Source: a virus. From it: 64,000 nt of DNA. Below the pieces are notes generated by a model, which was not told the origin of the DNA, searched no databases, and saw only the letters and a list, made by a program, of their open reading frames with translations. The DNA is taken from the IMG/VR virus record IMGVR_UViG_3300031454_000001, positions 7,546 through 71,545 of that record; one strand, 5' to 3'. Positions within the stretch are counted from its first letter, which is position 1. Each line of letters begins with the position of its first letter. Both the position numbers and the translations under genes were made by a program. Shown here piece by piece: positions 13,954 to 21,778 of the stretch.

Positions 13954-14152
13954 TTTTGTGTTCCTTGTGAAGTAACCATGTATCGCGCTCTATGGGGCTT
14001 TTAATGCGACCGGATGACACTTTTTTGATGTGATAATTATCATAATCATCTACGGCAAATATTAAGAATATAAATTCTATATATGGAGCATGCATTATCT
14101 AGTCATGGGTTCTACCACTATTCCAAGTACCAACACAATAATTTAAAAGAAC

Positions 14153-14380
14153 TTAATCTTTCCAAGTGATTGCTTTTACAGCAGCAATTTGTGCTAACTC
14201 TGTTTGAGTTATAGCGAATGAACACCATCTTTTTACTCCGGTCTGATCGGTTGTGCTTCTTAGATCATTTAACTGGTCAATTGCATTAGCATAAATCTTT
14301 TTGCATTTTGAAACTGAATCAAGATTGGACGGATTTAATTGCAATTCAACTGCCTTTTCACCGAAAGTTTGTTCTGACAT
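14153..14380 (-). CDS. Small helical protein resembling Acb2/Tad1 hairpin (DUF7681-like) anti-defence proteins
   Basis: RWCSFAITQTELAQIAAVKAITW resembles the recalled Acb2 C-terminal helix pattern RW.....T..Q.G..A..RAI. Confidence 0.55.
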   Translation of the reverse strand: MSEQTFGEKAVELQLNPSNLDSVSKCKKIYANAIDQLNDLRSTTDQTGVKRWCSFAITQTELAQIAAVKAITWKD

Positions 14381-14452: not shown

Positions 14453-14554
14453 TTAAACCTTCACTTCAACGGATGGCGCTGCTGTTGGAGCTGGCGCTGC
14501 TGTTGGAGATGGCGTTTCTACTGTAACTGTTGTGTCTCCTCCTGGATTTATCAT
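14453..14554 (-). CDS. 33-aa Pro/Thr/Ala-rich micropeptide
   Basis: MINPGGDTTVTVETPSPTAAPAPTAAPSVEVKV, AT-rich start context TTAAATATG. Confidence 0.45.
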   Translation of the reverse strand: MINPGGDTTVTVETPSPTAAPAPTAAPSVEVKV

Positions 14555-14582: not shown

Positions 14583-14630
14583 TGGAGCATGAAGGAAATC
14601 GAACCTTCCGACACCACCAATGGATGCCCC
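14583..14630 (-). ncRNA. 48-nt tRNA-like mini-RNA (acceptor stem, mini D-arm, T-arm; no anticodon arm)
   Basis: GGGGCAT/ATGCTCC 7-bp stem with G3-U70 and discriminator A; CCA-TTGG-TGG; GAAGG-TTCGATTT-CCTTC. Confidence 0.65.
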
Positions 14631-14958
14631 GTTATTATTGTGTTGGACGCTTAGGGTAGTTAAGCGCAGGTTGTTAACCACCAATAATCGCCAACACAAT
14701 TATTTATAAGAATATTGTGTAGGCTCCGGGCTCTTACCGGTATGCACGTCTGTTCAGAGGATTACCAACACAATTATTTCTAAGAACTTTTTTAAAAGTA
14801 CCTGCCGGATCATCAACCCGACTTCCCTTAGCGGCATTCGCAATGTCAAGTGTATTACCCGTTGTTCTTCCAACTGTCATATCATTATTATTGCGTTGAT
14901 AGTCTATGTCGTCGCTTCGCTGATCAGGCGTAGTAAGGCTTCAGAATTACCAACACAA

Positions 14959-15477
<519 letters not shown>

Positions 15478-16357: not shown

Positions 16358-16393
16358 TTTATTTTGGTTGTGTTTTTTGTTTGTTTAAAAATT

Positions 16394-16409
16394 GCCGGTC
16401 TTTCCCGGC
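16394..16409 (-). terminator. GC hairpin (terminator or boxB-like)
   Basis: GCCGG-GAAAGA-CCGGC followed by AATTTTT on the minus strand. Confidence 0.5.
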
Positions 16410-16577
16410 TGTCAGCTTTGTTTAAATTTTAATGTTTTTCTATTACTTAACCATGTGCCGTCATGTCGGTATCTCTACGATCTCATTCCATGAAGTCAGT
16501 ACGTTTCTACGTTGTACCTCGTGAATAGTGTTTCATTAAAACCAACTCAGCATTTCTGCCTCCTGTGTGTATGGTTG

Positions 16578-16686
16578 TGACGGGAGCAGTCTCGAAGCTG
16601 CAAGGATTTACGTAAGTTTTAGCATCCGGAATCTCAACTTACTACCAACTAATAATAGCTGCGTTTACCAATTTCGCCATCCCGCC
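16578..16686 (-). ncRNA. tRNA-Leu/Ser-like RNA with non-canonical anticodon and expanded variable region
   Basis: Acceptor GGCGGGA/TCCCGTC, D-arm GCG-AAATTGGTAAA-CGC, T-arm GCAG-CTTCGAGA-CTGC; 109 nt. Confidence 0.6.
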
Positions 16687-16752
16687 AAAAAAATATTATT
16701 TATTTTGATTCGTGTTTCTTCCTCCTTTTTTATAAATAACACCTTTAAAATG

Positions 16753-17170: not shown

Positions 17171-18046
17171 TCAGGAAACTAATAAGTTGTAATTGATATA
17201 TCCTTCGAATTCATTAATCCAATCATATACTATTTGCAATACTTGATTTGTCTCCGGTGTATCACCAGGTTTCACATTCATGAAGAACATCTCAATTGGG
17301 CGTGATGAATCTTTAATTTTATTAATATTATTAGCTATTGTAATATCGCGTGACTTCATTAAAGTTCCACACAAACATGAACATTCGCCTTCATAAACAG
17401 AACCGTCTATTTTACCATCTGAAATCGCTTTTTTAAGATTTTGTATTTCAGGAATAGCTCTTAGCAAAACGTCAAATAAGTCTTTTTTAATTTCGCGAAG
17501 GTCAGCACCGCGAAGGTCAGCACCGATAAGGTTAGCACTGCTAAGGTCAGCACCGCGAAGGTCAGCACCGCGAAGGTTAGCACCGCGAAGGTCAGCACCG
17601 CTAAGGTTAGCACTGCGAAGGTCAGCACTGCTAAGGTCAGCACCGCTAAGGTTAGCACTGCTAAGGTTAGCACTGCTAAGGTCAGCACCGCGAAGGTCAG
17701 CACCGCGAAGGTTAGCACTGCTAAGGTCAGCACCGCGAAGGTCAGCACCGCTAAGGTTAGCACTGCGAAGGTCAGCACCGCGAAGGTTAGCACTGCGAAG
17801 GTTAGCACTGCTAAGGTCAGCACCGCGAAGGTCAGCACCGATAAGGTTAGCACTGCTAAGGTCAGCACTGCGAAGGTCAGCACTGCTAAGGTTAGCACCG
17901 CGAAGGTCAGCACTGCGAAGGTCAGCACCGCGAAGGTTAGCACTGCTTTTTATTGCTTCTAGTAGTGTGTCCTTAATATTATTATTTTCATTTTCGTACT
18001 CGAAAAGTATTGATCCCCACAGCGATTTTATTTTAATCTTAATCAT
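17171..18046 (-). CDS. Pentapeptide repeat protein
   Basis: About 30 A(D/N)L(R/S/I)(G/S) repeats between unique N- and C-terminal domains. Confidence 0.92.
   Translation of the reverse strand: MIKIKIKSLWGSILFEYENENNNIKDTLLEAIKSSANLRGADLRSADLRGANLSSADLRSADLSSANLIGADLRGADLSSANLRSANLRGADLRSANLSGADLRGADLSSANLRGADLRGADLSSANLSSANLSGADLSSADLRSANLSGADLRGANLRGADLRGADLSSANLIGADLRGADLREIKKDLFDVLLRAIPEIQNLKKAISDGKIDGSVYEGECSCLCGTLMKSRDITIANNINKIKDSSRPIEMFFMNVKPGDTPETNQVLQIVYDWINEFEGYINYNLLVS
17499..17946. repeat. 15-bp tandem repeat encoding the pentapeptide repeats
   Basis: Units GCAC(C/T)G(CG/CT/AT)AAGGT(C/T)A repeated in tandem. Confidence 0.9.
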
Positions 18047-20572: not shown

Positions 20573-21778
20573 TTATATCGTCCTCAACACCCCTGCCTGC
20601 TCTGATATACTTTCCCCTGTAAGGTGGTAGTAAATTGATACTGTACCTACTGTAACGGCCATTAGTTCCGCCGTAACGCTTTTAGGTATTTTATTTTCAG
20701 CGCACATAGTAGCAAAAGAATGCCGGGCCACATGGGTAGTGATGTTCTTGCTGGTTTCAAGCATTACAGCCAGCACCTTTAAATTATCCCTTGTTTTGCG
20801 CTGGCTGATAGGCGCCGGCAAAGTAGCTACTACTTCAAAAATGCCTACCAGCGTAGGACCGATTGGCAATACAACCCATTGACCGGATTTCCTTGTTTTA
20901 ATGGGCCTTAGCCTTAATAAGTCGCCGGACACCATGGACATAGCATTAGCCCAGTCCGAATACCGCAACCCGGAAAAAACACCCATAAGGAAGTAAGTAA
21001 GTGAAGCATATAATGAACCCGTTACTCTTTTCTCTTTCCAAAACTTTACCCACTTGTCCCGCTCATGCATTTCCAGGAACGTCCGCTCTGTCTGTACATA
21101 TTTAGGAATAGTAAAATTATGGAAGGGATTTATTTTTATCACGCCTTCTTTATATGCATGCGTTATAACGGTGCGAAACCACTTGAAAGTTGTGTTAAGG
21201 GTGTTTTGCCCCATACCCCGTGATCTTTCCGCAGATTCATATTTACGAAGAAAGGTAGCGTCAATGGAGCTTAAAGCAAGCTGGCTTCCGGCAAAAGATT
21301 TTAACCGGTTTATCTCCTTATTATAATTTGTGCGGGAACCAGTCACCTGCGACAGGTCTTTATATACTTTCAGATCAGCAGCATACTCAAAGAAGTTTTT
21401 GCCTGACACCTTGCCTTTTAGTTCATCCTTAATCATTTGGCCCGATACCGGCTTTCCTTCAATAGATTTATTTACTATTATGCGCTCTATTTCGCTGATC
21501 GTTTTTCGCAGATCAATGTTACAGTTTTTGTAGTTTGGGTAACTGGATTTTATTTCCCTGGTACTACCATCCCAATATTTTTGTTCTATCTTGTAGGGGG
21601 TAGAAATATAGGTTATTTTTCGGTTAAAAGTAATGGCTATGTATATAGGATATTGATTACCGTTATATACAGCATGTTTCCATAATAGCAAGCGAACGGA
21701 GTGAGGTATCATCTTAGTAAGATAGTTGGTTAGACAATAGTAAGACAAAACCTTTAAATTAATGTCTTTATTTACCAA
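20573..21778 (-). CDS. Tyrosine recombinase / phage integrase
   Basis: N-terminal arm-binding (YPIYIAITFNRK) and SAM-like domains; GLRYSD, HVARHSF and C-terminal Tyr. Confidence 0.93.
   Translation of the reverse strand: MVNKDINLKVLSYYCLTNYLTKMIPHSVRLLLWKHAVYNGNQYPIYIAITFNRKITYISTPYKIEQKYWDGSTREIKSSYPNYKNCNIDLRKTISEIERIIVNKSIEGKPVSGQMIKDELKGKVSGKNFFEYAADLKVYKDLSQVTGSRTNYNKEINRLKSFAGSQLALSSIDATFLRKYESAERSRGMGQNTLNTTFKWFRTVITHAYKEGVIKINPFHNFTIPKYVQTERTFLEMHERDKWVKFWKEKRVTGSLYASLTYFLMGVFSGLRYSDWANAMSMVSGDLLRLRPIKTRKSGQWVVLPIGPTLVGIFEVVATLPAPISQRKTRDNLKVLAVMLETSKNITTHVARHSFATMCAENKIPKSVTAELMAVTVGTVSIYYHLTGESISEQAGVLRTI

Follow-up and report, generated by a model that had tools for sequence, protein, structure and literature searches.

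How far can a phage tmRNA be cut down and still be a working RNA? The question is raised by a 48-nt element in the window (the whole 64-kb stretch of DNA analyzed here, which is most of a 73.5-kb IMG/VR record rated complete), where an acceptor stem and a T-arm with alanine-type letters stand almost side by side. Its parts are as follows.

14583 to 14630, minus strand: whole anticodon-less tRNA/tmRNA-like minihelix, 48 nt (sequence reading, and the sole match of the minihelix scan in the window)
14624 to 14630, minus strand: 5' strand of the acceptor stem, GGGGCAT (7 of 7 bases pair with 14584 to 14590)
14609 to 14623, minus strand: unpaired linker resembling a tmRNA-type D-loop, containing TGGTGGT (linker alignment test)
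14591 to 14608, minus strand: T-arm, with stem strands GAAGG and CCTTC around the 8-nt loop TTCGATTT (5 of 5 Watson-Crick pairs, direct reading)
14583 to 14590, minus strand: 3' strand of the acceptor stem, ATGCTCC, plus discriminator A73 (direct reading)

On re-reading, the letters of the original prediction matched exactly from 14630 to 14583, and its main structural claims were borne out: a 7-bp acceptor stem with G3:U70 and discriminator A, a 5-bp T-arm with TTCGA, no anticodon arm, and no encoded CCA (CGA follows A73). All 12 of 12 stem pairs form, and G3:U70 is the sole wobble in GGGGCAT/ATGCTCC. The T loop is 8 nt, the canonical 7 plus 1, and no register yields 7 nt. The linker, 15 nt long (CCATTGGTGGTGTCG), contains GG and has no convincing stem. 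A mini D-arm had also been claimed; its three pairs, CCA with TGG, can be drawn on paper but are absent from the minimum free energy (MFE) and centroid folds, and this arm is doubtful. The same two folds also lack the T-arm as drawn, the centroid fold retains the 7-bp acceptor stem, and overall stability is ordinary (MFE z = −1.29 versus shuffles).

G3:U70 makes minihelices substrates for alanyl-tRNA synthetase (AlaRS), for which a 12-bp coaxial acceptor/T helix carrying this pair suffices, and acceptor/T minihelices are also accepted by RNase P and the CCA-adding enzyme. The phage element has the corresponding features, with G3:U70 in a 7-bp acceptor stem, a T stem, and A73. It shares the 12-bp acceptor/T helix and G3:U70 with synthetic alanine minihelices, which unlike it are laboratory constructs. 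It also has the features of an RF00023-type tRNA-like domain, namely, the acceptor with G3:U70 and A73, the unpaired D-loop, and the T-arm. Helix P2, the pseudoknots, and the tag frame of RF00023-type tmRNAs are absent, as just 15 nt lie between acceptor and T-arm.

The linker was used to ask which kind of RNA the element resembles. When the 16 nt after the acceptor strand were aligned against six tmRNA or tRNA-like domain (TLD) D-loop regions (G003, a tmRNA-bearing relative described below; two host-family tmRNAs; DS6A; pSt2308; and L107), the alignment was better than those of 99.4% of shuffles (P = 0.006), while the likeness to eight tRNA-Ala-type D-arms was at chance level (P = 0.78). TGGTGGT is common to the linker and the DS6A D-loop. 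Judged from its letters, the predicted shape is a tmRNA tRNA-like domain whose D-loop leads directly into the T-arm. The host-family tmRNAs (Lacibacter and Flavisolibacter) are standard one-piece genes without an encoded CCA, so a missing CCA is normal for the lineage, and posttranscriptional addition is plausible.

A chance resemblance in AT-rich noncoding DNA has to be weighed at this point. A scan for a 7-bp acceptor (no more than 1 G-U pair), a 5-bp T stem, a TTCRA loop of 7 to 8 nt, and a gap of 3 to 30 nt found exactly 1 site on both strands of the window, at 14583 to 14630. In 300 dinucleotide shuffles, the mean was 0.043 matches per window, or 0.0033 when G3:U70 and A73 were required. 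However, the definition was set after the site had been seen, and very many windows have been scanned, so rarity among shuffles is by itself no proof of a gene, and context must decide: a rate of 0.003 per window over about 250,000 windows would give hundreds of such sites, the stability is not above that of shuffles, and both stems formed in only 1 among the 120 metagenome pattern matches listed (L230). What argues against chance is the noncoding location, an RNA cluster partly shared with a tmRNA-bearing relative, and the tmRNA-like linker. An accidental match would have had to fall in one of the few noncoding stretches, within an RNA-gene cluster whose counterpart in a relative has a tmRNA, and with a D-loop-like linker at P = 0.006; we judge it very unlikely.

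Curated models did not settle the identity. The original prediction had proposed running ARAGORN and the Infernal tRNA and tmRNA models, and the minihelix was called by none of them. ARAGORN found 0 tRNA or tmRNA genes in the window, and Rfam gave no tRNA or tmRNA at the gathering threshold, nor at an E value of ≤10 in the 3 kb around the minihelix. Across the phage, RF00005 (cloverleaf tRNA) had no match at the minihelix even at an E value of ≤10, RF00023 (threshold, 47 bits) had no match, and RF04321 had none at the minihelix site. Searching 76 nt alone gave mascRNA-menRNA (RF01684) as the best whole-length Rfam alignment on the RNA strand, at an insignificant 12.7 bits (E = 2.1; threshold, 42.5), with Plastid-ycf2 at 13.9 bits on the opposite strand and an insignificant, partial match of 7.1 bits to beta_tmRNA at its T-arm and acceptor end. 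In mascRNA, a natural tRNA-like RNA that RNase P and RNase Z excise in MALAT1 processing, the anticodon arm is reduced; this RNA differs from the minihelix in being a vertebrate RNA. A covariance model, R1, built from three actinophage TLD-only RNAs (DS6A, pSt2308, and L107), ranked the minihelix first in the 3 kb searched, but at 8.5 bits (E = 0.69), aligned via the acceptor stem only, and ordinary tRNAs score similarly under R1; with default filters, R1 did not report the minihelix. With the Rfam scores insignificant, the minihelix belongs to no curated family by score.

The terminase large subunit (TerL) and portal of the phage are of the Flavobacterium/Cellulophaga podovirus type. Nearer relatives lie in Chitinophagaceae chromosomes, where Lacibacter and Flavisolibacter carry related TerL genes (L265 and L262), and in many soil and rock metagenomes. 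No credible genes occur in the roughly 580 nt around the minihelix, which are flanked by an exoribonuclease gene on one side and an Acb2/Tad1-like gene on the other; the surroundings are an RNA-gene and accessory island. The features that matter are the following.

20573 to 21778, minus strand: tyrosine integrase (phrog_1, E = 2.8e−23)
14959 to 15453: DEDD 3'-5' exoribonuclease (phrog_2259, PF16473)
14684 to 14718, minus strand: copy C of the leader motif (direct repeat family D2)
14634 to 14703, minus strand: long hairpin, unit 3 of the array, directly upstream of the minihelix (inverted repeat I1)
14453 to 14551: 32-codon open reading frame (ORF) after the minihelix
14413 to 14437, minus strand: GC-rich hairpin plus T run, likely terminator of the unit after the 32-codon ORF (direct reading)
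14153 to 14380, minus strand: 75-aa protein near the Pfam Acb2/Tad1 hairpin domain (24.8 bits versus a threshold of 27, E = 2.6e−5)

The integrase makes the phage temperate. The 75-aa protein is a candidate sponge for cyclic-nucleotide defense signals, as suggested by its near-threshold domain score. Four copies of a ~29-nt leader motif (AAGTTCTTAnAAATAATTGTGTTGGTAAT), with an overrepresented core, AATTGTGTTGG, lie on the minus strand between 14123 and 14977. Three of the four copies open hairpins of 60 to 70 nt with variable interiors, and copy A overlaps the exoribonuclease stop. These motifs may be promoters, and copy C is the putative promoter of a hairpin-plus-minihelix transcript. The arms of the unit 3 hairpin (14634 to 14663 and 14674 to 14703) end 3 to 6 nt before G1 of the minihelix, in agreement with the earlier statement that an array ends 6 nt upstream. 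This hairpin folds at −25.2 kcal/mol (z = −4.29), a stability reached by none of 200 shuffles. The arrangement of a GC hairpin plus TTTTAAA downstream of the 32-codon ORF is seen also at other gene ends of the window.

This layout bears on the idea that the minihelix is a processing signal only, with RNase P and RNase Z cuts giving the upstream hairpin its 3' end and the downstream ORF mRNA its 5' end and the freed minihelix having no role. Its start 3 to 6 nt past a very stable hairpin, the ORF and terminator that come after it, the insignificant mascRNA-menRNA alignment as the best on the RNA strand, and the placement of similar RNAs of other phages in tRNA arrays, which are regularly processed by RNase P/Z, would all fit. 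However, units 1 and 2 of the array have no such element, and a signal of this kind needs no G3:U70, A73, or tmRNA-type D-loop. As a complete account it seems improbable, although cleavage at this point is compatible with, and not exclusive of, the favored reading as a working tmRNA-like RNA.

Directly after leader copy D, a second 48-mer (14084 to 14131, minus strand) shows 24/48 ungapped identity to the minihelix and no stems, and it overlaps the start of a 50-codon ORF. Both 48-mers end in the same nine bases, CATGCTCCA; outside this 9-mer, the likeness has a P value of only 0.04. The 14084-to-14131 sequence may be a decayed paralogue, which would indicate that copies in the island do decay.

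Conservation in related phages had been named as a further check on the original prediction, and no minihelix homologue was found in 26 clade relatives or in phages sharing neighbor genes; there is therefore no covariation evidence for the locus. TerL alignment led to 39 loci, and 26 clade records were searched in all. The best TerL identity within IMG/VR was 52%, and the closest relative was a Logan contig with a TerL identity of 66%. TerL or a 138-aa protein as single queries gave no relatives. Neither the exoribonuclease nor similar DNA was found in the 14 clade records searched for each, exoribonuclease neighbors in 13 IMG/VR loci were not syntenic, and the only match of the region in a blastn search of cultured phages was to the exoribonuclease gene. 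A 479-aa protein and RecT used as anchors led to other temperate phages, which lacked the minihelix. An exact 27-mer had 0 matches in viral_contigs. Two rock-metagenome DNA runs contain the minihelix stretch, identical in both, and a third contains a small part; among the sequencing runs listed, no RNA run contained it.

The pattern of a T-arm followed by an alanine-type acceptor end was absent from all 26 clade records save G003 (IMGVR_UViG_3300020045_009568; 71.3 kb; TerL identity, 45%), and there it belongs to a circularly permuted two-piece tmRNA (L073:1461-1790; RF04321, 58.6 bits versus a threshold of 47, E = 4e−10), on which ARAGORN agrees. This tmRNA has G3:U70 and A73 in its acceptor, and its tag frame has alanines at the end. 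Most descriptions of permuted tmRNAs are from Alpha- and Betaproteobacteria and Cyanobacteria, and one in a Chitinophagaceae-type phage seems unusual. The order in G003 is tRNA-Asn, an RNA of about 235 nt ending in the terminator ACAGCCGGGNAAGACCGGC, and then the tmRNA.

In the window, both ARAGORN and Rfam passed over a 109-nt tRNA-like sequence at 16578 to 16686 on the minus strand, with acceptor GGCGGGA/TCCCGTC, a D-arm, a weak T-arm, and an extra long arm; after it come a ~190-nt RNA and a terminator (whole segment, 16380 to 16700, minus strand). The terminator ACAGCCGGGNAAGACCGGC and part of the ~235-nt RNA are common to G003 and this segment, so the two phages share part of an RNA-gene cluster. 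The cluster of G003 includes a full tmRNA, and that of this phage includes three inserted protein genes, the hairpin array, and the 48-mer. Immediately before the G003 tmRNA lies a sequence that has AAGTTCTT in common with the window leader motif, which is weak evidence for what may be a common promoter type. Adjoining the RNA cluster of the window is a gene for a 291-aa protein (17171 to 18046, minus strand) made almost entirely of pentapeptide repeats (PF00805, E = 2e−55), which may be a DNA mimic.

The G003 tmRNA and the minihelix come from the same phage clade and agree in G3:U70, A73, and the missing encoded CCA, and the D-loop of the former matches the linker of the latter in 10/14 bases by eye. 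They differ in that the tmRNA is permuted and has P2 and a tag frame, none of which the minihelix has, and in that the tmRNA follows its tRNA(-like) gene and noncoding RNA (ncRNA), whereas in the window three protein genes separate that shared segment from the minihelix. No SmpB gene was found in this phage or in G003.

Phage attachment sites can also preserve tRNA-like letters, and the 3' part of a host tRNA-Ala or tmRNA gene retained for integration is a further explanation, one made conceivable by the tyrosine integrase. An attP core holds just the 3' part of a gene, but this element also includes the matching 5' acceptor strand, separated from the T-arm by 15 nt. The 23 nt from the T-arm to the end had 0 exact matches in genome_contigs (185,579 species genomes), the integrase gene is 6 kb away, and a working host gene would hardly have an 8-nt T loop. 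We consider an attachment site most improbable.

Several known RNAs have been reduced in a comparable direction. The TLD-only RNA of mycobacteriophage DS6A (tmRNA Website tmID 11587), which we located at L139:28478-28557, resembles the minihelix in coming from a temperate phage and in its standard order, G3:U70 and A73, unpaired TGGTGGT D-loop, and T-arm, and both lack a tag message and pseudoknots. The two differ in that the DS6A RNA is 80 nt with a P2 stub whose tip is CCGCACGCGG, while the minihelix is 48 nt with no P2; it also departs from DS6A in its 8-nt T loop, its Bacteroidota-type phage, and its insignificant score to the DS6A-type model. The SmpB-binding TLD constructs include a P2 stub. 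On paper, the minihelix would match the DS6A family; by score, P2 stub, and tip hairpin, membership is unsupported. The proposal of a tmRNA tRNA-like domain without the mRNA part is partly supported, by the shape, the tmRNA-like linker, the G003 tmRNA, and the DS6A precedent, but no detector or family model calls the element.

DS6A is listed as "TLD only" by Hudson, Lau, and Williams (PMC4131195), and that paper cites Mao et al. 2009 for a DS6A-similar molecule that strongly inhibits tmRNA whether or not it can be charged, perhaps through titration of SmpB. The 2025 tmRNA database recognizes a class of "standard, no CDS" sequences, with nine members, describes tmRNAs lacking a coding sequence (CDS) from jakobid mitochondria and forms of about 65 bp from Mallomonadaceae plastids, and cites Mao et al. 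2009 for inhibition of endogenous tmRNA in E. coli by the DS6A form (PMC11915505). The organelle CDS-less tmRNAs are like the minihelix in being reduced to little beyond the tRNA-like domain. They differ in being the organelle's or cell's own and in co-occurring with SmpB, whereas the minihelix is a phage accessory in a phage without SmpB.

Similar RNAs exist in other phages. The IMG/VR pattern scans fixed GGGG and CTCCA, so the alanine identity of their matches holds by construction; the closing of both stems, the missing anticodon arm, and the tRNA-gene-like place in arrays do not. In L102 (IMGVR_UViG_3300020716_000021, 803 to 845), an array of nine tRNAs has a 43-nt alanine-type form between two tRNA-Lys genes, and a 48-nt form lies between two tRNA-Pro genes of a 437-kb phage contig (L120). 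Three further contigs (L121, L118, and L127) have alanine-type RNAs of 56 to 59 nt, with the D-arm intact and no anticodon arm, located within or next to tRNA arrays; like the two shorter forms, they lie on the strand of the tRNA genes. A 79-nt TLD-only form with a short P2 stub occurs in six IMG/VR contigs, and Streptomyces phage pSt2308 has an unannotated TLD-only tmRNA-like gene of about 78 to 79 nt between annotated tRNAs (L138:1501-1578; PV588686.1, 33356 to 33433); the P2 tip CCGCACGCGG is common to the pSt2308, DS6A, and L107 forms and those of the six IMG/VR contigs. The clade relative G017 has a 45-nt acceptor-plus-T-arm RNA (L276:~680-724) with stem CCTCCTG/CAGGAGG and discriminator C, in a 14-tRNA cluster and preceded by TTGACA-like letters. 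This nonalanine example indicates that internal-deletion tRNA derivatives exist without alanine identity. The CGAA after A73 that is common to the window and L102 was discarded as a feature, since CGA was then required in the pattern and its recurrence among matches is meaningless. In the L102 array, a 90-nt cloverleaf-like RNA whose anticodon-type loop has 8 nt lies uncalled at positions 196 to 285, and after the array comes an ORF that has a KxDG ligase-type motif.

These comparisons are central to the main rival, which holds that the minihelix is a dead remnant, a tmRNA or tRNA-Ala gene that lost its interior, has no function, and is not yet degraded. A full tmRNA is kept by just one relative and most have nothing there, the region is mosaic and fast-changing (the exoribonuclease is missing from 14 relatives), the T loop has an extra base, and no model calls the element. 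The possible decayed copy at 14084 to 14131, the nonalanine G017 form, the lack of covariation, and the identity of the two metagenomes with the minihelix also fit a relic. Yet the 12 stem pairs, TTCGA, linker GG, G3:U70, and A73 are intact, whereas the putative paralogue 500 nt away has lost all pairing. The deletion would need to have excised precisely the stretch from P2 to the T-arm, the 185,579 species genomes gave no exact match to a source sequence, and the same architecture recurs within tRNA arrays of unrelated phages. On balance we regard a remnant as possible but unlikely.

The reading that we favor, with moderate confidence, is that the minihelix is a working, maximally reduced tmRNA-like alanine RNA that would serve as a decoy for SmpB or other tRNA partners and also as an RNase P site. 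It would have descended from, or converged on, a tmRNA tRNA-like domain, keeping the alanine-marked acceptor, the tmRNA-type unpaired D-loop, and the T-arm and losing P2, the pseudoknots, and the tag message. Transcription would begin at the repeated leader motif and include the upstream hairpin. Host RNase P would then cut at G1, which would also mature or release the upstream hairpin RNA. RNase Z or an exonuclease would remove the 3' trailer, and a host enzyme would add CCA. Bacteroidota tRNAs and tmRNA without an encoded CCA need this addition anyway. AlaRS would charge the product via G3:U70 and A73. Having neither message nor anticodon, the minihelix cannot decode or tag. Its most likely action would be as a decoy, for SmpB first and possibly for EF-Tu or AlaRS. 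It would thereby dampen trans-translation during infection or lysogeny, as reported, in the papers that cite the experiment, for a DS6A-like TLD-only molecule.

The kind of RNA is not new, being already known from DS6A and the CDS-less tmRNAs. New are the 48-nt size without P2, the Bacteroidota-type phage, the connection to a same-clade relative whose tmRNA is permuted, and the attachment to an array of leaders and hairpins. If expressed and charged, the minihelix would be the most reduced natural tmRNA-like RNA so far, at 48 nt and with no P2, and phage TLD-only RNAs would extend from actinophages to Bacteroidota phages. Together with the comparable RNAs in unrelated tRNA arrays, it suggests a widespread and mostly unannotated phage interference with SmpB, EF-Tu, AlaRS, or RNase P, by elements all of which standard tRNA and tmRNA finders miss. 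The minihelix also offers a minimal natural system for testing which TLD features SmpB and AlaRS require. Even as a remnant it would document the loss of phage tmRNA genes.

A bolder extension, which we think doubtful, is that the 48-mer represents a distinct, P2-less class of working phage alanine minihelices, the smallest tmRNA/tRNA mimics, in an RNA-only counterdefense module with the leader-plus-hairpin RNAs, beside the Acb2/Tad1-like sponge and the exoribonuclease. Such RNAs might block host trans-translation or act as decoys for tRNA-directed defense nucleases.

Other candidate identities for the island were tried and rejected. On inspection, both spacing and sequence of the leader misfit a Bacteroidetes −33/−7 promoter and likewise a CRISPR-repeat mimic, and a Y-RNA (YrlA)-like architecture was dropped because the tRNA-like part is not enclosed by a long stem. 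Elsewhere in the clade, RF00005 matched a 120-nt sequence in G008 (C1:71600-71719; L065), which ARAGORN missed, and a 92-nt sequence in G005 (C1:23477-23568; L070); both are tRNA genes with long insertions.
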